This document shows, piece after piece, positions 4,446-24,000 of a stretch of 24,000 nt of DNA (position 1 is the stretch's first letter; each line of letters begins with the position of its first letter). The position numbers and the translations under genes are program-made. The stretch spans positions 64,273-88,272 of the forward strand of contig NZ_CP083762.1 of assembly GCF_023558375.1 (NCBI RefSeq). Reading direction: 5' to 3'. The notes below the pieces were generated by a model. It made no database searches. It was not told where the DNA came from and was given only the letters and a program-made list of their open reading frames with translations. The stretch comes from Chroococcidiopsis sp. CCMEE 29 (GTDB taxonomy: Bacteria > Cyanobacteriota > Cyanobacteriia > Cyanobacteriales > Chroococcidiopsidaceae).

Positions 4446-4547
4446 GGCTAACAACGGCACGCACCCGACCGCGGATAGCGTTGCCTTCATCCGCGAGACT
4501 TGTCGCTGGCAAAAGTTCGTCGCGGCGGGTGATGCCTGGCGTTAGGC
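4446..4547 (+). repeat. attC-like recombination-site candidate (D) after the hydrolase ORF
   Basis: GGCTAAC-aacggcacGCACCCGACCGCGG...CGCGGCGGGTGatgcctggc-GTTAGGC. The arms pair with bulged bases. It shares GCACCCGACC..CGGGTG and the GTTAGGC box with site A. It starts 12 nt after the stop. Confidence 0.5.
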
Positions 4548-4708
4548 GGAGATTAAGCGTGGGATATGGTTTTACCTAAAGCTTGCCCCATGTTGAGAAC
4601 ACACAACCTTCCATGAGTCAACTCCTCATACCCCTACCAACAGGTTTTGACCGCACCCGCAAGCTCCAACGCCGGCAGTCAGCAGAAAACAATAGACGTT
4701 TATAGGAC

Positions 4709-5668
4709 TTACGCATTGACAAAAGACTGATTATGTAAATTCACTTCAAGTTTCTGCTGGAGGTGTTCTAGAATGAATTCCCTTGCCACCTGTAGGTACA
4801 AATTCTTTTGTAATTCGTACCAGTTTTCAATTAGTTCTTCAGCTCGCATTAACTCTAACTTAGTAAAGGCTCGGATTGAACAAAAAATGTGAGTTTTAAT
4901 AGCCTCACTTGTTCTGACCATAAACCGCGAAACTCCACACAGTTGTTTCAAGGCTCGGTGATAGCATTCAATTCCCCAATGGATTGAGTGCGACTCATTG
5001 AATTCCTGTCGGCTAACTTGTTCGGTAGCATCTGAATTAGGTAGGTATGTAATGTAGTATCTCTCGGCTTCGTTTTTGAATATCCTCCGAAATACTTTGA
5101 CGCGCCCAAAGTTTTTCAGATGTATTACCAAACCTTGGTCAGGAATTTCCAAATTTTGTACCTGGGTGTAATTTTTACCATCAGTTGAGACTTTTCGATT
5201 TTTGGCAATACCCATGAGAAATCCTACTTCCCGGTTTTTCAAGAATTTCAGATTTTCAAGGGCTGAATACCAAGCATCACCAGTTACCGTTTCTGGCTGC
5301 AAGCCCCAAGCCAAAACCTCCGTAATCATTACTCGAAAGTAATCGTTTTTTGTCAAACCCTCCCGCTTATCGTAGATCCGATAATTAACTGGGATAGACT
5401 TAGCTGATGCGTCGGTGTAATACAGGGTAATGAGGTGAAGCCCTTTAACAATTCGATGATGTTTTCCTGACCAAAAGTATCCAATTAGTTCAGCTAAATT
5501 TGGCTCACTATAAGGTTTATCAATAACGGTATCGTCACAGCTTAAAGTGCCGCCCACCAATTGAATGTGTGGTTTTATCTCTTCAAACAAGTCTTTAGGT
5601 TGATATCTTTCCCTTAACAAGAAGCGATTGACGCTGTCGTGTGAGACGTGCTTAAGAATTTCTGACAA
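4709..5668 (-). CDS. DDE transposase, IS4/IS701-superfamily (family tentative)
   Basis: 319 aa in the ORF track from an internal TTG. The frame stays open to 5803 (adding ...STIREITKPSTAKCNLDTYTLFLLAEPKYAGCNRL) with no ATG/GTG/TTG in that stretch. DDE-like landmarks: CDDTVIDKPY, GDAWY, HWGIECYHRALKQ. The stop lies inside the IR. Confidence 0.75.
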   Translation of the reverse strand: MSEILKHVSHDSVNRFLLRERYQPKDLFEEIKPHIQLVGGTLSCDDTVIDKPYSEPNLAELIGYFWSGKHHRIVKGLHLITLYYTDASAKSIPVNYRIYDKREGLTKNDYFRVMITEVLAWGLQPETVTGDAWYSALENLKFLKNREVGFLMGIAKNRKVSTDGKNYTQVQNLEIPDQGLVIHLKNFGRVKVFRRIFKNEAERYYITYLPNSDATEQVSRQEFNESHSIHWGIECYHRALKQLCGVSRFMVRTSEAIKTHIFCSIRAFTKLELMRAEELIENWYELQKNLYLQVAREFILEHLQQKLEVNLHNQSFVNA

Positions 5669-14646: not shown

Positions 14647-14932
14647 ATGCTCCACGATTCTCTTGTAAGTTGCCATTTAATCTGGCTCCAGTCTCGCACG
14701 CGCATCCAGTCAGAACCAGGTTGTGTACCGATTGCCTGAAATCCGTAACGTTCTGCCAACCGGGATACTCTCAGGTTGGCACTTACAGAAATACCGATAA
14801 TCTCCTTCAGTCCCAAATCGCGGAACCCAAAATCAATCAGAGCTTTCCCGACTTCAATGGCATAGGCATAACGTCCCCAGTACTGTGGTGCTAGCTCAAT
14901 TCCAAGTTCTGCCTGCCCAGCAGCATAGCTGG
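14628..14932 (-). pseudogene. GNAT (RimJ/RimL-like) acetyltransferase, C-terminal ~100 codons only
   Basis: The frame is open up to the intron boundary: ..AELGIELAPQYWGRYAYAIEVGKALIDFGFRDLGLKEIIGISVSANLRVSRLAERYGFQAIG. The N-terminal ~70 codons are missing and were not found on the far side of the mobile block. Confidence 0.65.
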
Positions 14933-17418
14933 ATGCCTAAGCCAGGAAGTCACCCCCCTGACTCGGCTACAAAACCGTGCATGAAACGTTAATTTCACAC
15001 GGCTCCTCGATGATTTGGTGCTTGACAAGCACACCTCTAAATTCAGAGTTAAAAGGGATTACAGTTGAGATAATCCTCATCTATCTCTGGAACTGTAAGA
15101 GCAACTTTATCTGCTGCCGTTTTAGCATCGTGGCAATGTCCATGAAGTAATTGAAGATTGTCATAACTATCCTTACCGCCTTGAGAGCGGGGTATTTTAT
15201 GGTCGATTTCCATCAAGTCATCATGGTGAAAAAACAGTCCACAGTGAGTACACTTTCCTTTCTGCATCTTCAAGAGTGTTGCCATTCTTTTTGAAGCTTC
15301 AGGATGTTTACCCATTCTGGAACTCCAGTACACCCAATCACCATCAAACGGGCTACGACTTCCTTGCACTTGTATGTGTCTCACAATGCGAGTTTCACGG
15401 TGCTTGAGTAAGCGAATTTTCTGGTTATGGGGTTTAAATACCCAGTTATCAGACCCTACGGTTTGCCAATACTTTTGACAACTCCATCGGGAGGATTTAT
15501 TGGGGTGACGATGTTCTGCCCATGCTTTTAGCTGGCTGAATAATGTTGTATCCGCCTGGTTAAATATGCGTTTGCTGACGACGCCTGAGTAGTAGTTTGT
15601 CCATCCACGGATGACAGGATTTAGATGGGTGATTAAATCAGATTGTGGTACTGACTTATGCCCATCAATCAATTTACCTATCTTCTGCATATGTGCCTTC
15701 AGCTTTGTTTTGCTTGGGGTAATCAGAGTTTTGTAACCAAGTAATTTTCCGCTTGAGCTTTTACCACTGTGATATTTTCCTACAGGAAATTGTCGAACAG
15801 TGAAACCCAGAAAATCAAAACCAACTTTACCTTCATACATATTAAGTGTATGGGATATTCGGGTTTTACTTGGTTTGAATTCCAGCCCCAATTCGCTTAA
15901 CCATTCACTAATAATCTGCTGACATCTTTGGATAACGGCAAGGTCTTTATGCAGAATGACGAAATCATCTGCAAATCGAATTAAGCTTATTGCTGTATAG
16001 TTCGCCGCTAGAGAGCCAGGTAGACTTAAAGCAACTTGTTTAATTCTATTCTCCATGCCGTGGAGGGCTATATTCGCTAATAATGGCGAAATCGTACCCC
16101 CTTGTGGAACACCCATCGATGTTGTGTGGTCAGATTTCTCCCTCAAAGCATATTCGGAGAAATCAATCACTCCCGCTTTTAACCATGCACGAATTTGTCG
16201 GCGGATGGTGGGGAATGTATTTAATTTTGACAGCAGAACATTATGATGAATTTTGTCAAAACATTTTGCAATGTCGGCATCCAAAACATATTTAGGTTTG
16301 AGCTTAATAGTGTTGAATATTGCCTTCATTGCATCATGGGCATTTCTTCCTGGTCGGAAGCCGAAGGAGTTTGGCTCGAAACGAGCTTCCCATTCAGGTT
16401 CTAGGGCTAGTTTTACTAGCGATTGCAAGGCGCGGTCGTATAGAGTGGGTATAGAAAGGGGTCTTTTTTCTCCTGATGAACCGGGTTTTGGTATCCACAC
16501 CCTGCGAGTGGGGGCGGCTTTATGACCTAGTTTCAAGGATTGTACTAAGATGAGACGTGCTTTTGGGGACAAGTTTTTCTGCCCATCCACTCCTGCCGTC
16601 TTCTTACCTCGGTTTTCCTGTGTTACCCGACGAACCGCTAAACACTTTGCTGACCAGGAGCGTAACAACGTTTTTTGGAGTTGACGAACTGCTTTGACAT
16701 CACCACGCTGCGAGGCTTTGTAGATGCGCTTTTGCAACTTAAACACTTTCCGCTCTAGCTTTCGCCAGGGGATAGTCTTCCATTCCACCGTAGTCTTAAA
16801 ACTCGTTTTAGACATATAAATTGCTACTGGTACCTCTACAATCCAAGTCACCGTGCCTCCGTCTGCATATCCTCTGGCTTTCCCAAAGGCTTTGGCTTCT
16901 GAGGCAATCCTTCCCCTTGAAGGCTTGCGGCTGGCTACCTACTTAGGAAATCGACCATTTCCTGAGAGCGCATCAGGGGGTTACTTCGTTCCAATTCTTC
17001 GTTTGTCGCTGGTTTTAGGGTTCTCTCTCTTCACCGGGTTTATTGTGAGTGCATATTGGTCTGCCGCTTAATCAGCCAACCACTTATCCTTTCCCTTTTG
17101 GGACAAGCCTGACAGCCTTTTGGCTTGTTTTGCATTACGATGATTCAGTCAAGAGATTTGTATTCCTACCCATGACCAGCTATGCTAGGCGGGATTCCGC
17201 ATTAGGCTTGCAGTTACCGCCATGATTCCCCGCTTCATCCCATCAAAGAACCACTTGGCTGAAATGGGGGACTCGCTGTCACTCCTGCACTTGGAGGGAT
17301 GGAATTACACCATCACGAAAAATTGAGTTATCAAGGAACAGGAGAAGATTTCTCTCTTCTATCTTCCTTGTCTGTCATCCCCGAATATTTCTATTCGTTT
17401 CGACAGAACGAATCACAC
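14933..17418 (-). mobile_element. Group II intron, copy 1 (2486 nt)
   Basis: It starts GTGTG (17418 downward), has the RT/maturase/HNH ORF in domain IV, a canonical domain V and a domain VI with bulged A, and ends ..GGCAT at 14933 (+/-1-2 nt). Confidence 0.9.
15049..16851 (-). CDS. Group II intron reverse transcriptase/maturase with HNH endonuclease domain
   Basis: RT blocks (RRVWIPKPGSSGEKRPLSIPTLYDRALQ; FADDFVIL in place of YADD), X/maturase (RGWTNYY) and HNH (CTHCG...DHKIPRSQGG...HGHCH). The likely true start is ATG 16815 (MSKTSF..). The ORF-track start is a GTG. Confidence 0.9.
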   Translation of the reverse strand: MTWIVEVPVAIYMSKTSFKTTVEWKTIPWRKLERKVFKLQKRIYKASQRGDVKAVRQLQKTLLRSWSAKCLAVRRVTQENRGKKTAGVDGQKNLSPKARLILVQSLKLGHKAAPTRRVWIPKPGSSGEKRPLSIPTLYDRALQSLVKLALEPEWEARFEPNSFGFRPGRNAHDAMKAIFNTIKLKPKYVLDADIAKCFDKIHHNVLLSKLNTFPTIRRQIRAWLKAGVIDFSEYALREKSDHTTSMGVPQGGTISPLLANIALHGMENRIKQVALSLPGSLAANYTAISLIRFADDFVILHKDLAVIQRCQQIISEWLSELGLEFKPSKTRISHTLNMYEGKVGFDFLGFTVRQFPVGKYHSGKSSSGKLLGYKTLITPSKTKLKAHMQKIGKLIDGHKSVPQSDLITHLNPVIRGWTNYYSGVVSKRIFNQADTTLFSQLKAWAEHRHPNKSSRWSCQKYWQTVGSDNWVFKPHNQKIRLLKHRETRIVRHIQVQGSRSPFDGDWVYWSSRMGKHPEASKRMATLLKMQKGKCTHCGLFFHHDDLMEIDHKIPRSQGGKDSYDNLQLLHGHCHDAKTAADKVALTVPEIDEDYLNCNPF

Positions 17419-17648
17419 TAGCGACCTGCAATTATAAATGCTCAAACCTGCAAACAAGTCATTTTCAAACCAGCGTTTTCTTGACTTTCCTATTGGTAAG
17501 AGTTTCTGAACCCTAAACCGCCTACTCTCTAGTTAAAAAAGTCGGTAAAGAATTCAAAGTTAACTTATCAAATGCTGAGATGAGTTTTTTTGACAACCCC
17601 TGCAAGTCCTCACAGCCCAGTGCTAATAAGGCGTTTACTCTATTTGCA

Positions 17649-19500
17649 AATAATCCTGGGTCTTCCGCGATTTTGATGATGGAGAGGAATGTCACGGATG
17701 AGCGATCGCTCTTGATTGGAAACAGGATGAGGCGATCACCATTGGATGAACTGAAAACAGCAGAACAGAGAGTTCTAAACTGCCAATAAGAATCGTCGCT
17801 CAAGCAGCTCCATCCCAGCGCGACCATACATCTGCCGCTTCAACATCTTCAGTCGATTGATCTGCCCTTCGGTTTGACCGTTGCTCCAAGGAAGTGTTAC
17901 ACCTGCCTTAACAGCATCATAGTCCTCTTGCAGCCGTTTGGCAAAGCGGTTGAAAGGAGAAAGCTGGCTATGGAGCGCCTGTTCTAACCAAGGGTCGAGT
18001 TGCTCTGGCTGTCTGTCACGCACGAGAAAGGCAAAGCTTTGAGCGAGTTCAATCGCTTGGGTGAGGTCAGGATGCTGTGCCATGGCTTGTACGAGCTGTG
18101 CGTCATCTGGTTCCCAATTCTCCGGTCGTCGCGCTGCACATCTGGTAGTGCGGCGAGGTGTGAGCGCCAGTTTCTGGGGTTCACTCACCTTTGGCAGTTG
18201 CTTAATTGAACGCCGTCGTTTCCTGCGTTGCGTTCCTTGGGCTTGACGAAAGCGACGGGTATAGCGAGCTACTGTGTCATAGCTGCCAGAATAACCACGT
18301 TGTTGAATCTCCCCAAACAACCGCAAGGTATCATGACAACCATCGTTCCAACGTTCAAGAACATAGTCTTTGTAAGGGTCAACTAAGCGGCTCCGACCAC
18401 AGTCACGGCGTCCTTGGCGCTCCGGGAAGGTGGAACTGTGTAGGTAACGAAATACCGTCGTGCGACCAATCCCCACCTGACGAGCAATTGCTGGCACCAA
18501 CCAGCCTTGGTGGTGTAATTCCCAGACTCTCTTGTAATCTGCTTCTCGCCTCGACCGACGTTGTTCGGCAATGCTTTGCTCCTTGGGCAGCGGCTGCGGT
18601 GGCAACACTGGTACAACTGCGGTACTCTCAGGACTGATTACTGATGACAGGCTGTGTATTGCCCCAACTGTCTTAAGAGCTTGACTTTGTGCGCCAAACG
18701 CTTCAGCCAATGTTTCAGCCAGGTTTTGCAGCAGATGAAATCGGTCTGCTACTTGGATAGCCGTCGGTGCCCCTTGCCGAATGCCCCTTTCGTAAGCTTT
18801 GGAGCGATCTCGGGTGACGATTTCCACGCCTGGATGAACACAGAGCCAGTTGGCTAACGTCGATGCTTCCCGATCTGGCAGGAGCTCGATTGGTCGATGT
18901 TGTTCCAGGTTCACCAGAATTGTGCCGTAACGTCGCCCTTTCCGCCATGCCCAATCATCAACTCCAAGCACGCGGGGAGTCGCGTTGACAGCTAACCGAC
19001 TTTGATGAATGCGTCGCAATATCGTGTCCGGGCTGATAGGCATCCCTAGCCCCACCGCTAGCTTCACTCTAGCTTGACCACCTAGCATCATCCCAATCAG
19101 ATGCAGGGCATCATTGAATCGTACCGTTTGTCTACCATAAGCAGCGACGACGCGGGGCAGCCGTTCACAGAAAATTCGTCGTACACATGTCCGATTGACA
19201 CAGAAGAACCGACGGGTGAGTAGTTGTATTTGTACAGTAGCTCCTTGCCAAGGTAGATCTGTGAGTATGCGTTCGTAGCGACTATGTACCTGTGATGAAG
19301 GTTGGTGGCATTTGGGGCACAGAGCTACCGCTCTGATTGTCTTGACAACCAAGACCACTTGCGTGTCTTCTACAGAGAGGCTTTCTAGAGCGAGTACTTG
19401 AGGGTCAGCGAGGAGAGGGCTTTGATTCATATAACCCTCTTATTATAGCGAATTGCTACCTCATGCTTCATCAAAATTGCGGAAGACCCGTAATTACAGC
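17649..19500 (-). mobile_element. ISL3-family insertion sequence
   Basis: IRs GGGTCTTCCGCGATTTTGATGA (17658-17679) and TCATCAAAATTGCGGAAGACCC (19468-19489). Flanking direct repeat CTATTTGCA (17640-17648 and 19501-19509). Confidence 0.85.
17775..19430 (-). CDS. ISL3 family transposase
   Basis: 551 aa. N-terminal zinc finger CPKCHQPSSQVHSRYER, LPWQG motif, central DDWAWRKGRRYGT and a C-terminal SNGQTEGQINRLKMLKRQMYGRA signature. Confidence 0.9.
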   Translation of the reverse strand: MNQSPLLADPQVLALESLSVEDTQVVLVVKTIRAVALCPKCHQPSSQVHSRYERILTDLPWQGATVQIQLLTRRFFCVNRTCVRRIFCERLPRVVAAYGRQTVRFNDALHLIGMMLGGQARVKLAVGLGMPISPDTILRRIHQSRLAVNATPRVLGVDDWAWRKGRRYGTILVNLEQHRPIELLPDREASTLANWLCVHPGVEIVTRDRSKAYERGIRQGAPTAIQVADRFHLLQNLAETLAEAFGAQSQALKTVGAIHSLSSVISPESTAVVPVLPPQPLPKEQSIAEQRRSRREADYKRVWELHHQGWLVPAIARQVGIGRTTVFRYLHSSTFPERQGRRDCGRSRLVDPYKDYVLERWNDGCHDTLRLFGEIQQRGYSGSYDTVARYTRRFRQAQGTQRRKRRRSIKQLPKVSEPQKLALTPRRTTRCAARRPENWEPDDAQLVQAMAQHPDLTQAIELAQSFAFLVRDRQPEQLDPWLEQALHSQLSPFNRFAKRLQEDYDAVKAGVTLPWSNGQTEGQINRLKMLKRQMYGRAGMELLERRFLLAV

Positions 19501-19568
19501 CTATTTGCACTTAATGTGGTTTTGAAACCTTGTTTGCAGTTTGAGGCTCTGCTGTTTGCAGGTCGCTA

Positions 19569-22054
19569 GTGTGATTCGTTCTGTCGAAACGAATAGAAAT
19601 ATTCGGGGATGACAGACAAGGAAGATAGAAGAGAGAAATCTTCTCCTGTTCCTTGATAACTCAATTTTTCGTGATGGTGTAATTCCATCCCTCCAAGTGC
19701 AGGAGTGACAGCGAGTCCCCCATTTCAGCCAAGTGGTTCTTTGATGGGATGAAGCGGGGAATCATGGCGGTAACTGCAAGCCTAATGCGGAATCCCGCCT
19801 AGCATAGCTGGTCATGGGTAGGAATACAAATCTCTTGACTGAATCATCGTAATGCAAAACAAGCCAAAAGGCTGTCAGGCTTGTCCCAAAAGGGAAAGGA
19901 TAAGTGGTTGGCTGATTAAGCGGCAGACCAATATGCACTCACAATAAACCCGGTGAAGAGAGAGAACCCTAAAACCAGCGACAAACGAAGAATTGGAACG
20001 AAGTAACCCCCTGATGCGCTCTCAGGAAATGGTCGATTTCCTAAGTAGGTAGCCAGCCGCAAGCCTTCAAGGGGAAGGATTGCCTCAGAAGCCAAAGCCT
20101 TTGGGAAAGCCAGAGGATATGCAGACGGAGGCACGGTGACTTGGATTGTAGAGGTACCAGTAGCAATTTATATGTCTAAAACGAGTTTTAAGACTACGGT
20201 GGAATGGAAGACTATCCCCTGGCGAAAGCTAGAGCGGAAAGTGTTTAAGTTGCAAAAGCGCATCTACAAAGCCTCGCAGCGTGGTGATGTCAAAGCAGTT
20301 CGTCAACTCCAAAAAACGTTGTTACGCTCCTGGTCAGCAAAGTGTTTAGCGGTTCGTCGGGTAACACAGGAAAACCGAGGTAAGAAGACGGCAGGAGTGG
20401 ATGGGCAGAAAAACTTGTCCCCAAAAGCACGTCTCATCTTAGTACAATCCTTGAAACTAGGTCATAAAGCCGCCCCCACTCGCAGGGTGTGGATACCAAA
20501 ACCCGGTTCATCAGGAGAAAAAAGACCCCTTTCTATACCCACTCTATACGACCGCGCCTTGCAATCGCTAGTAAAACTAGCCCTAGAACCTGAATGGGAA
20601 GCTCGTTTCGAGCCAAACTCCTTCGGCTTCCGACCAGGAAGAAATGCCCATGATGCAATGAAGGCAATATTCAACACTATTAAGCTCAAACCTAAATATG
20701 TTTTGGATGCCGACATTGCAAAATGTTTTGACAAAATTCATCATAATGTTCTGCTGTCAAAATTAAATACATTCCCCACCATCCGCCGACAAATTCGTGC
20801 ATGGTTAAAAGCGGGAGTGATTGATTTCTCCGAATATGCTTTGAGGGAGAAATCTGACCACACAACATCGATGGGTGTTCCACAAGGGGGTACGATTTCG
20901 CCATTATTAGCGAATATAGCCCTCCACGGCATGGAGAATAGAATTAAACAAGTTGCTTTAAGTCTACCTGGCTCTCTAGCGGCGAACTATACAGCAATAA
21001 GCTTAATTCGATTTGCAGATGATTTCGTCATTCTGCATAAAGACCTTGCCGTTATCCAAAGATGTCAGCAGATTATTAGTGAATGGTTAAGCGAATTGGG
21101 GCTGGAATTCAAACCAAGTAAAACCCGAATATCCCATACACTTAATATGTATGAAGGTAAAGTTGGTTTTGATTTTCTGGGTTTCACTGTTCGACAATTT
21201 CCTGTAGGAAAATATCACAGTGGTAAAAGCTCAAGCGGAAAATTACTTGGTTACAAAACTCTGATTACCCCAAGCAAAACAAAGCTGAAGGCACATATGC
21301 AGAAGATAGGTAAATTGATTGATGGGCATAAGTCAGTACCACAATCTGATTTAATCACCCATCTAAATCCTGTCATCCGTGGATGGACAAACTACTACTC
21401 AGGCGTCGTCAGCAAACGCATATTTAACCAGGCGGATACAACATTATTCAGCCAGCTAAAAGCATGGGCAGAACATCGTCACCCCAATAAATCCTCCCGA
21501 TGGAGTTGTCAAAAGTATTGGCAAACCGTAGGGTCTGATAACTGGGTATTTAAACCCCATAACCAGAAAATTCGCTTACTCAAGCACCGTGAAACTCGCA
21601 TTGTGAGACACATACAAGTGCAAGGAAGTCGTAGCCCGTTTGATGGTGATTGGGTGTACTGGAGTTCCAGAATGGGTAAACATCCTGAAGCTTCAAAAAG
21701 AATGGCAACACTCTTGAAGATGCAGAAAGGAAAGTGTACTCACTGTGGACTGTTTTTTCACCATGATGACTTGATGGAAATCGACCATAAAATACCCCGC
21801 TCTCAAGGCGGTAAGGATAGTTATGACAATCTTCAATTACTTCATGGACATTGCCACGATGCTAAAACGGCAGCAGATAAAGTTGCTCTTACAGTTCCAG
21901 AGATAGATGAGGATTATCTCAACTGTAATCCCTTTTAACTCTGAATTTAGAGGTGTGCTTGTCAAGCACCAAATCATCGAGGAGCCGTGTGAAATTAACG
22001 TTTCATGCACGGTTTTGTAGCCGAGTCAGGGGGGTGACTTCCTGGCTTAGGCAT
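19569..22054 (+). mobile_element. Group II intron, copy 2 (2486 nt)
   Basis: GTGTG at 19569. Domain V GAGCCGTGTGAAATTAACGTTTCATGCACGGTTT at 21982-22015. Domain VI GCCGAGTCAGG...CCTGGCTTAGGC with bulged A. Ends GGCAT at 22054. By-eye comparison with copy 1 found no differences. Confidence 0.9.
20136..21938 (+). CDS. Group II intron reverse transcriptase/maturase with HNH endonuclease domain
   Basis: 600-aa translation identical to the copy at 15049-16851. The probable ATG start is at 20172. Confidence 0.9.
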   Translation: MTWIVEVPVAIYMSKTSFKTTVEWKTIPWRKLERKVFKLQKRIYKASQRGDVKAVRQLQKTLLRSWSAKCLAVRRVTQENRGKKTAGVDGQKNLSPKARLILVQSLKLGHKAAPTRRVWIPKPGSSGEKRPLSIPTLYDRALQSLVKLALEPEWEARFEPNSFGFRPGRNAHDAMKAIFNTIKLKPKYVLDADIAKCFDKIHHNVLLSKLNTFPTIRRQIRAWLKAGVIDFSEYALREKSDHTTSMGVPQGGTISPLLANIALHGMENRIKQVALSLPGSLAANYTAISLIRFADDFVILHKDLAVIQRCQQIISEWLSELGLEFKPSKTRISHTLNMYEGKVGFDFLGFTVRQFPVGKYHSGKSSSGKLLGYKTLITPSKTKLKAHMQKIGKLIDGHKSVPQSDLITHLNPVIRGWTNYYSGVVSKRIFNQADTTLFSQLKAWAEHRHPNKSSRWSCQKYWQTVGSDNWVFKPHNQKIRLLKHRETRIVRHIQVQGSRSPFDGDWVYWSSRMGKHPEASKRMATLLKMQKGKCTHCGLFFHHDDLMEIDHKIPRSQGGKDSYDNLQLLHGHCHDAKTAADKVALTVPEIDEDYLNCNPF

Positions 22055-22278
22055 CCACTTGACAAAGAAAAATAATTTGATTGCTTATAAATAAGGTTAG
22101 GGCGTGTCTGCGAACTAAGTATCCTAGTAAAGGAGTGTTAGGAGAAACGGATTGAGACTAAGATAGAAGTAATTAGTGCTCACACGTTTTTACTATCGAA
22201 AGTAGGTGAAGTGCTGACTACCAGGAAGAGTGAATTGGAAGTGATAACTTCACTGCTGTACAAAAGCCAACCCTTTGC

Positions 22279-23651: not shown

Positions 23652-23697
23652 CGCCGAATTCTCCTTTACAGTTAGTTTGCAATACTGTTTATAGCTG

Positions 23698-24000
23698 TAG
23701 CGACCTGTAATTATAAATGCTCAAACCTGCAAACAAGTCATTTTCAAACCAGCGTTTTCTTGACTTTCCTATTGGTAAGAGTTTCTGAGAGGATGTTTGG
23801 AAAGTATAAGCTGCTACGCTAACCGCCTGACCATCAGCCGAACCATGGCAGCATAAATAAAAGCTTCTGAGCTGGTAGGTAAGACTTCATAGTCAATGGT
23901 TAATCGCCTGTAACGCACAAGCCATGCCAGAGTGCGCTCAACTATCCACCGCCAAGGCAACACTTGAAAGCCTTTGTTCTGCTTGCGCTTGACCACTTCC
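23698..24000 (-). mobile_element. IS5-family insertion sequence, 3' end (continues beyond the window)
   Basis: The terminal 91 nt are identical (one change) to the MITE end at 17419-17509. It contains the transposase C-terminus. Confidence 0.7.
23814..24000 (-). CDS. IS5-family (IS427/IS1031-like) DDE transposase, C-terminal part, 5'-partial at window edge
   Basis: [48 protein letters not shown] is the conserved C-terminal block of this family. The frame is open to nt 24000. Confidence 0.75.

Follow-up and report, generated by a model that had tools for sequence, protein, structure and literature searches.

Inverted copies of a group II intron at the terminal repeats of a cyanobacterial transposon, with a probable mode of homing

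The subject of this analysis is a stretch of 24,000 nucleotides from Chroococcidiopsis sp. CCMEE 29 (assembly GCF_023558375.1, contig NZ_CP083762.1, positions 64,273 to 88,272 of the forward strand; the whole stretch is called the window below), in which two copies of one group II intron lie in inverted orientation on either side of a transposable element. The arrangement raises the question of how the same intron came to stand at both ends of one element, and what determined its position and direction. Very probably, a group IIB intron whose protein combines reverse transcriptase (RT), maturase and HNH domains homes to the tip of the terminal inverted repeat (IR) of a MITE (miniature inverted-repeat transposable element) or insertion sequence (IS), by pairing of its exon-binding sites (EBS) with that tip. 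The copies are inverted in the window because the tip lies on opposite strands at the two transposon ends; this explanation, combined with intron-exon base pairing, had been offered in a preliminary description of the DNA and is borne out by the mapped complementarity between the EBS and the intron-binding sites (IBS) of the exon.

Anatomy of the two introns

The introns, their encoded proteins and the adjoining exon positions are as follows (exon positions are counted from the insertion point, negative upstream and positive downstream):

19569..22055, plus strand: group II intron of 2487 nt, GUGUG...branch-A22049-GGCAUC
14932..17418, minus strand: group II intron, 100% identical to the plus-strand copy
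20136..21938, plus strand: intron-encoded protein (IEP) of 600 aa, with RVT_N, RVT_1, GIIM and HNH domains (Pfam)
15049-16851, minus strand: second copy of the IEP, inside the minus-strand intron
17419..19568: target element between the introns, a rearranged MITE carrying an ISL3-family IS
19555..19568, plus strand: 5' exon, with IBS2 TTTGCA (-14..-9), IBS1 GTCGCT (-7..-2) and A-1
17419-17432, minus strand: mirror copy of the 5' exon, beginning ATTGCA...
22056..22057, plus strand: terminal CA of the transposon, separated by the intron from the rest of the repeat; IBS3 is C+1
14930-14931, minus strand: mirror copy of the terminal CA

The two introns were free of mismatches to one another. Perfect identity ran from 19556 to 22057 against 17431 to 14930 and ended exactly there; the shared sequence outside the intron consists of 13 nt upstream (TTGCAGGTCGCTA) and 2 nt of the transposon downstream (CA). 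Both introns are directly followed by CCA, and then by unrelated sequence.

The 5' boundary was set by the GUGUG motif (19569-19573 and 17418-17414) and by alignment to at least 12 relatives, which begin with GUGUG or GUGCG (consensus GUGYG). The 3' boundary was set by empty sites, which read GCTA-CA, and by the 3' ends of the relatives (AGGCAAC/AGUUUAAC). The bulged A22049 is followed by GGCAUC and aligns with the A-GGC-AAC of relatives; distant relatives end in A-GGC-AAC, A-GUU-UAAC and similar sequences, with the bulged A seven nt from the end.

Domains V and VI are conserved. The Rfam model RF00029 matched both copies: the minus-strand one scored 40.0 bits (14923-15007), which equals the gathering score, and the plus-strand one 39.7 bits. 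The D5 model RF04357 matched the plus-strand copy with 50.4 bits (E 7.5e-10). The RF00029 scores differ between the copies because the alignment takes in a few bases of the flanks, which are not alike. As a side effect, the Rfam gathering threshold reports one of two identical introns and misses the plus-strand copy (21980-22063). The Rfam D1-D4 models gave no domain I-IV match in the intron that could aid class assignment.

The IEP reading frame is intact in both introns and all domains are present, which amounts to the RT, X and D/En set of an RT/maturase encoded in domain IV. The protein matched TIGR04416 with 304 bits (cut-off 300), and its closest solved structure was the T.el4h maturase/RT (6ME0), aligned over the full length with an E value of 3.9e-102. 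The RT active site reads FADD instead of YADD, as it does in 12 of the 120 best homologues, apparently a lineage trait. Judged from these sequence features, the intron is assigned to the mobile group IIB introns of the chloroplast-like, T.el4h-like type.

Within Logan, the IEP of the window was matched on one contig only (run SRR15174967), whose 2502 nt are exactly the 13 nt, the intron and CCA; this contig looks like a collapsed multicopy repeat.

Homing site and guide sequences

The window holds two exact copies of TTGCAGGTCGCTA, at 17419-17431 on the minus strand and at 19556-19568 on the plus strand, and a copy with one mismatch at 23698-23710 (minus strand), which gives 3 matches at up to 2 mismatches against 0.59 expected. 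Read outward, the 13-mer makes up the outer part of a terminal inverted repeat that is imperfect, its two arms becoming dissimilar farther from the tip. The preliminary description had identified the 5' exons as the tip of such a repeat, and the exact 13-mer at the outer repeat end beside both introns agrees with it.

Close relatives of the intron (IEP identity 81-95%) are carried by 12 loci of GTDB genomes from Nostoc, Nodularia, Calothrix, Chlorogloeopsis, Richelia, Brasilonema and a 'Limnothrix' metagenome-assembled genome. All 12 have (A/T)TTGCAG(G/T)TCG(C/T)TA before the intron and CCA-NN-TA after it. The same site is used on three plasmids (pCC7120delta of Nostoc PCC 7120, a plasmid of Nostoc sp. 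C057 and, as a remnant, one of Planktothrix NIES-204) and on 11 metagenome contigs, retrieved with the first 24 nt of the intron. After removal of duplicates, 24 distinct 5' junctions remained, from at least eight cyanobacterial genera, and none of the 24 lay in an unrelated target, the finding that the preliminary description would have taken as a refutation; three of them (loci L002, L006 and L095) match the proximal 14-20 nt of the repeat only.

Empty ends were found at the same loci and on plasmids retrieved with the end sequence. All of the approximately 17 empty ends read ...TTGCAGGTCGCTA-CA-NNTA, and all occupied ends read ...GCTA[GTGTG...GGCATC]CA-NNTA. Because the empty ends read GCTA-CA, the first C of the CCA that follows both introns, which had been taken for flanking DNA, is the last intron nucleotide, and CA belongs to the transposon. 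The insertion point, which had been placed at the outermost tip with unrelated DNA beyond it, therefore lies 2 bp inside the transposon terminus, with CA as the terminal dinucleotide of the element. The homing site comprises the last 16 bp of the repeat, 5'-(T/A)TTGCAGGTCGCTA^CA-3' (the caret marks the insertion point); over positions -30 to +15, the tip target reads GAGCATTTATAATTGCAGGTCGCTA before and CAGCTATG after the insertion point.

Directly outside CA lies a 6-bp duplication of the form NNTANN, perfect in three elements (L011, L085 and L087): CTTAGC flanks an empty MITE of 678 bp in L011, GGTATC an empty MITE of 522 bp in L085, and CCTAAA the MITE of pCC7120delta, which holds the intron in its right end. 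Since these duplications surround the MITEs, the MITE was inserted first and the intron entered later, 2 bp inside the end. Positions +5 and +6 are T and A at all sites because of the transposon's own NNTANN preference.

Some loci have further peculiarities. On plasmid1 of Planktothrix agardhii NIES-204 (L089, 4001-4052), the 13-nt tip and the first 39 nt of the intron are fused to unrelated sequence; this remnant sits at a truncated MITE end, and two empty MITE ends lie nearby. On plasmid4 of Calothrix sp. NIES-4101 (L011/L082), the intron (L011 2412-7415) is a twintron: it reaches 5004 nt by harbouring another, dissimilar group II intron, and the annotation has an RT gene split by another RT gene. 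At L008 4400-4470, the 3' half of domain V and the domain VI of another group II intron (CTACCTACCCTACTTCATGCACGGTT...) lie directly downstream of an occupied MITE end, and this junction sequence recurs in L047.

For mapping of the guide sequences, domain I of the window intron was aligned with those of 12 close relatives and 22 more distant relatives in other targets. Pairing with the own (cognate) exon was compared with pairing to foreign (non-cognate) exons for 23 introns with distinct targets, and the column scan for EBS3 used 24 introns. The following positions were obtained:

19853..19858 (intron 285-290), plus strand: EBS2, UGCAAA, pairing with -14..-9
17129-17134, minus strand: EBS2 of the minus-strand copy
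19915..19924 (intron 347-356), plus strand: EBS1 hairpin loop, AUUAAGCGG(C)
19919-19924 (intron 351-356), plus strand: EBS1, AGCGGC, pairing with -2..-7
17063-17068, minus strand: EBS1 of the minus-strand copy
19958..19958, plus strand: EBS3, G390, pairing with C+1
17029, minus strand: EBS3 of the minus-strand copy

Other positions had been proposed in the preliminary description: CTGCAA (19774-19779) as EBS2, AGCGAC (19977-19982) as EBS1 and TGGCGGT (19765-19771) as a wobble-rich alternative for EBS1. The pairing test gave the following values for the mapped and the earlier candidates (mean base pairs with own and foreign exons; share with at least 5 bp):

EBS1 loop: mean own 5.57, foreign 3.54; at least 5 bp own 19/23, foreign 19%
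EBS2 block: mean own 5.26, foreign 3.72; at least 5 bp own 18/23, foreign 25%
Earlier EBS1 (19977-19982): mean own 3.26, foreign 2.88; at least 5 bp own 3/23, foreign 3.6%
Earlier EBS2 (19774-19779): mean own 4.13, foreign 3.76; at least 5 bp own 7/23, foreign 24%
Earlier alternative EBS1 (19765-19771): mean own 3.61, foreign 3.51; at least 5 bp own 6/23, foreign 23%

The EBS2 block changes together with its own exon (-14..-8), from UCAUG/CAUGA to UCGUG/CACGA, ACAUC/GAUGU, CACAG/CUGUG and AUAGA/UCUAU. The EBS1 loop pairs with the last 5-7 nt of the exon; close relatives have UAGCGAC, UAGUGAC or UGGCGAC opposite GUCGCUA, and the loop of the window intron reads UAAGCGGC. In the alifold consensus, EBS1 lies in a hairpin loop and EBS2 in an unpaired stretch. 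Compensatory changes were present in 8 of the 8 pairs of the EBS1 hairpin stem, with 91% of cells paired; shuffles gave 68%, and sliding of the partner no more than 49%. G390 was the sole column with 88% Watson-Crick complementarity to the +1 nt, the next best reaching 58%. Pairing of EBS3 with the first nucleotide of the 3' exon is a hallmark of IIB introns, and the window intron thus combines EBS1 and EBS2 complementary to the 5' exon with EBS3 complementary to +1. All positions read by the RNA, from -14 to +1, fall inside the transposon tip.

Complementarity between the EBS and the tip, as first proposed, is thus upheld, for EBS3 as well as EBS1 and EBS2, at other positions than those named before. 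The earlier model combined the hexamer pairings, an IS5-family element invaded at its outermost tip and unrelated DNA after CCA. In its favour, both hexamers are present at the stated positions (as is TGGCGGT) and are perfect complements of the exon, and an IS5-family transposase fragment does follow a third copy of the MITE end. Taken as written, the model nevertheless has next to no chance of being right. A given hexamer would turn up about 0.6 times by chance in a sequence of 2487 nt, the homologous segments of the relatives pair no better with their own exons than with foreign ones and show no covariation with them, and close relatives in the same target have CTGCTA or CTACTA and AGCAAC or AGCGTC, substitutions that break the pairings. 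Moreover, the earlier EBS2 (19774-19779) falls within the conserved Id core, and the earlier EBS1 (19977-19982) beyond domain I, in a variable stretch. The empty sites assign CA to the element, and the IS5 element is best seen as nested (see below).

The target element and its insertion sequences

The components of the element between the introns, and of a third, unoccupied end near the border of the window, are listed below.

17419-17657: type-1 left arm and MITE centre, assigned by arm typing
17658..19489, minus strand: ISL3-family IS core, with IRs GGGTCTTCCGC..., inserted at a TAATCCT arm motif
17775-19430, minus strand: ISL3-family transposase of 551 aa whose DDE domain contains an HTH_7 insert (Pfam; NCBIfam NF033550, 359 bits)
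19490-19568: type-2 right arm, assigned by arm typing
23696..23788, minus strand: third, unoccupied MITE end, TG + TAGCGACCTGTAA..., with a G-to-A change at -11, inside IBS2
23786..24000, minus strand: IS5-family IS nested in the third MITE copy, with the IR-like sequence GAGAGGATGTTTGG; runs off the window
stop codon at 23814-23816, minus strand: C-terminus of the IS5 transposase (NF033580 fragment match, E 5e-14)

Elements with the targeted tips measure 515-680 bp, lack an open reading frame and have arms made of four 17-18-nt subrepeats. One subfamily has ATTGCAGGTCGCTA tips with TTGCAAnTAATCCTGG subrepeats, the other TTTGCAGTTCGCTA tips with TTGCAAATAATGTGGTTT subrepeats. Their shortness, lack of coding sequence, terminal inverted repeats, 6-bp duplications in three elements and many copies identify them as MITEs. 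Plasmid records with their ends numbered 32, from nine cyanobacterial genera, whereas the intron, of which plasmids had three full copies and one remnant, is far less widespread. In the window, 17424-17659 is collinear with the MITE centres of L085 and L087, and a 91-nt MITE end recurs at 23698-23788 without an intron.

The target had been described as an IS5-family element or MITE, and of these the MITE part stands. As regards IS5, the transposase fragment is preceded by an IR-like sequence of its own, GAGAGGATGTTTGG, that lies 91 nt into the third copy; in the first copy, in L085 and in L087, the MITE consensus runs on past this divergence point. GAGAGGATGTTTGG resembles the IR of a related IS5 element in L101 (AGAGGGTGTTTATAAA). 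Searches with the IS5 fragment (tblastn) found no match in the related loci, where no IS5 transposase adjoins the tips; a full IS5-type parent was also sought in plasmids with the transposase fragment, and the nearest matches (66% identity) have unrelated IRs. On these alignments, the IS5 element is most simply read as a nested insertion.

All 4 long copies of the element, with the tips as their borders, have ISL3-family transposases with the HTH_7 insert. They occur in the window, in L083, in L005 (two) and in L088; by host, besides the 551-aa protein of the window, one decayed copy is in Chroococcidiopsis, two are in Nostoc XA010 and one is in Nostoc C057. The ISL3 cores have their own IRs, of the GG(C/G)TCTT type, located 60-240 bp inside the targeted tips, and it is the tips that make the 6-bp duplication. 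The L005-B core has its own 8-bp (T/A)TAATCCT duplication inside an arm, the cores of L083 and L005-A are flanked by inverted arms, and the match between the window core and the L088 core is limited to the 38-nt tip. The ISL3 cores may be the MITE's parent or may merely favour the MITE subrepeats as targets.

The gene content next to the element also speaks for a disturbed locus: the C-terminal part of a GNAT-like acetyltransferase (14650-14929, minus strand) runs straight into the intron/MITE junction, and because its N-terminal part is absent across the element, the locus has been rearranged.

These features of the element bear on two other explanations of the inverted pair. In the first, the second copy would owe its origin to an event at the level of the DNA (an inverted duplication, or else recombination or gene conversion involving both transposon ends), in place of two separate retrohomings. 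The 100% identity of the copies, the rearranged intervening element without a target-site duplication and the richness of the region in IS elements would all suit such an event. We consider it improbable: outside the intron the copies share just 13 nt and 2 nt, which is not enough for homologous conversion, and this shared sequence ends exactly at the limits of the conserved tip, the arms beside the two copies come from different subfamilies, and the 24 independent junctions elsewhere attest repeated arrival at the site.

The second explanation makes the intron a passenger of a transposing, intron-carrying MITE or IS, so that the constant junction would reflect common descent of one composite. 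The 6-bp duplication in PCC 7120 flanks MITE and intron together and is also compatible with transposition of a composite. However, the intron abuts both arm subfamilies in both arm orientations, and its copies resemble one another much more closely than the arms beside them do. Many members of the same MITE families are unoccupied, and the junction is complementary to EBS1, EBS2 and EBS3 of the intron itself; in addition, an insert of 2.5 kb at a distance of 2 bp from the cleavage site should prevent the end from being recognised. Descent of a single composite is thus very improbable, more so than a DNA-level event, and repeated homing to the tip is retained as the explanation.

Proposed homing, comparison with known introns and other features of the window

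The proposed course of homing is as follows. The intron ribonucleoprotein would recognise the strand ending in ...GCTACA-3' through EBS2-IBS2, EBS1-IBS1 (EBS1 being the Id3 hairpin loop) and EBS3-C+1 pairing, and the RNA would be reverse-spliced between A-1 and C+1, two bp inside the transposon terminus. By analogy with other endonuclease-bearing IIB and IIA introns, the HNH domain would nick the bottom strand approximately 9-10 nt downstream, at a position within the 6-bp duplication or a little past it. The nick would then prime reverse transcription, and the intron would be copied by target-primed reverse transcription. Each transposon would offer two such sites, and an inserted intron would always point outward; invasion of both ends of one rearranged MITE would give the two identical inverted copies of the window. 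Insertion puts 2.5 kb between the terminal CA and the remainder of the repeat, and the occupied end should lose its transposition function. RNA splicing cannot repair an occupied end, because the site is a DNA end and not an interrupted gene. The suggestion that the intron masks the ends from the transposase is plausible.

The anatomy of the introns, the conservation of the site, the empty sites, the 6-bp duplication and the EBS positions are direct observations, whereas the steps of retrohoming and the consequence for transposition are inferred. Several points weigh against the proposal. Mobility itself and the position of bottom-strand cleavage would follow from what is known of the intron family. 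At the 3' end, the terminal AY of group II introns is absent: the lineage ends in AUC, which keeps the terminal pyrimidine but has U in place of A as the penultimate nucleotide, and the distant relatives end in AAC, AAU or ACU. The AY terminus is a consensus and not obligatory, so that the AUC end is a deviation from consensus and no ground for excluding group II membership. The EBS1 loop of the window intron has an extra A compared with its relatives (UUAAGCGGC against UUAGCGAC), and A-1 therefore faces A350 unless that A bulges; the EBS1-IBS1 helix of this intron has 6 bp only, one of them G-U. The MITE of the window has no target-site duplication (CATAGC against CTTGAC), its arms belong to two subfamilies and its left arm lacks its subrepeats; given the missing duplication and the mixed arms, it was rearranged after or during the invasion. 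Several perfect sites have been left empty (L005, L011, L083-L085, L089), which points either to homing short of saturation or to an intron that is active in some places only. Lastly, no outward promoter was found in the MITE arms, and no transposase that mobilises the MITE was identified.

The closest known parallel is RmInt2, all copies of which in Sinorhizobium meliloti GR4 lie within the inverted repeats of ISRm17, and whose retrohoming has been assayed (PMC4615759; PMC5894124). Its authors noted that two sites per element, on opposite strands, double the number of targets (PMC4615759). The present intron shares with RmInt2 copies in the inverted repeats of a transposable element, two opposite-strand sites per element, an IIB-type ribozyme, recognition through IBS1/2/3-EBS pairing and residence in a mobile element instead of a host gene; each of its 24 junctions falls in the repeats of a single transposon family, and in the window an intron stands at either end. 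RmInt2 belongs to bacterial class D and its protein lacks an endonuclease domain and has the class D C-terminal motif, whereas the present intron is T.el4h-like and encodes HNH. RmInt2 is confined to one alphaproteobacterial strain and was tested experimentally, whereas the present intron is known from the sequences of at least eight cyanobacterial genera. The intron described here targets a MITE family 2 bp from the terminus. The resemblance is one of behaviour and not of descent.

The natural homing site of RmInt1, also from S. meliloti, lies in the multicopy ISRm2011-2 (IS630 family), and RmInt1 has been proposed to limit the spread of the IS (PMC5894124, PMC4238363). Like the present intron it homes to a multicopy mobile element, but its site is in the body of the IS, one per element, where splicing could restore the mRNA, in contrast to a DNA end beyond repair by splicing. 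Introns of class IIC insert into the recombination site of another mobile system, an imperfect inverted repeat (PMC4424553), and to this extent resemble the present intron; they have no endonuclease domain and use short EBS contacts and a DNA stem-loop, whereas the intron described here reads a linear sequence with the EBS1, EBS2 and EBS3 of a IIB intron. T.el4h of Thermosynechococcus (6ME0) is likewise a cyanobacterial IIB intron with an RT-X-D-En protein, and its homing sites differ from the transposon-tip site. T.el4h is not known to be associated with transposon ends.

Bacterial group II introns are often located in mobile elements (PMC7306698), and three modes of targeting have been published for them, namely homing sites, terminators and attC sites (PMC4424553). 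The literature searched contained no description of the case in cyanobacteria, and accounts of PCC 7120 insertion sequences or group II introns could already describe the location of the pCC7120delta intron. The case is a new one and not a new principle, differing from RmInt2/ISRm17 in intron class (IIB, HNH-bearing), phylum and target.

RmInt2 thus has a phylogenetically independent counterpart, a second group II intron that is specialised on the terminal repeats of transposons. The case is unusually well populated: 24 sites are occupied and approximately 17 are empty, spread over a number of genera, with the model strain Nostoc/Anabaena PCC 7120 among the hosts. The restraint of insertion sequences by introns, proposed for RmInt1 and RmInt2, thereby becomes testable in a genetically tractable cyanobacterium. 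Because recognition by the transposase holds the tip constant, the tip is a multicopy, horizontally travelling and harmless landing site. The 2.5-kb perfect repeats at MITE ends also explain assembly breaks and local rearrangements like that of the window. A more far-reaching reading, which we put forward tentatively and regard as rather unlikely, treats the intron lineage and the MITE family as predator and prey: the intron would permanently kill ends, and the transposon would supply fresh, constrained plasmid targets across the cyanobacteria. As a speculative part of this reading, the HNH protein may be adapted to read T+5 and A+6.

Some features of the window lie apart from the introns. A 51-nt unit is present in three direct copies at 11167-11393 (identities of 100%, 92% and 75%, at spacings of 95 and 81 nt), in the region where a gene for an ECF-type sigma factor with DUF6596 (9902-11212, minus strand) and a YCII-domain gene (11405-11764) diverge; these repeats had no Rfam match. 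The window as a whole is rich in IS elements. A pair of 36-nt inverted repeats (2256-2291 and 4526-4561, 81% complementary) brackets an alpha/beta-hydrolase gene, and a DDE_Tnp_1 transposase and an IS110-family transposase (4709-5668; 7649-8719) are encoded near these repeats.

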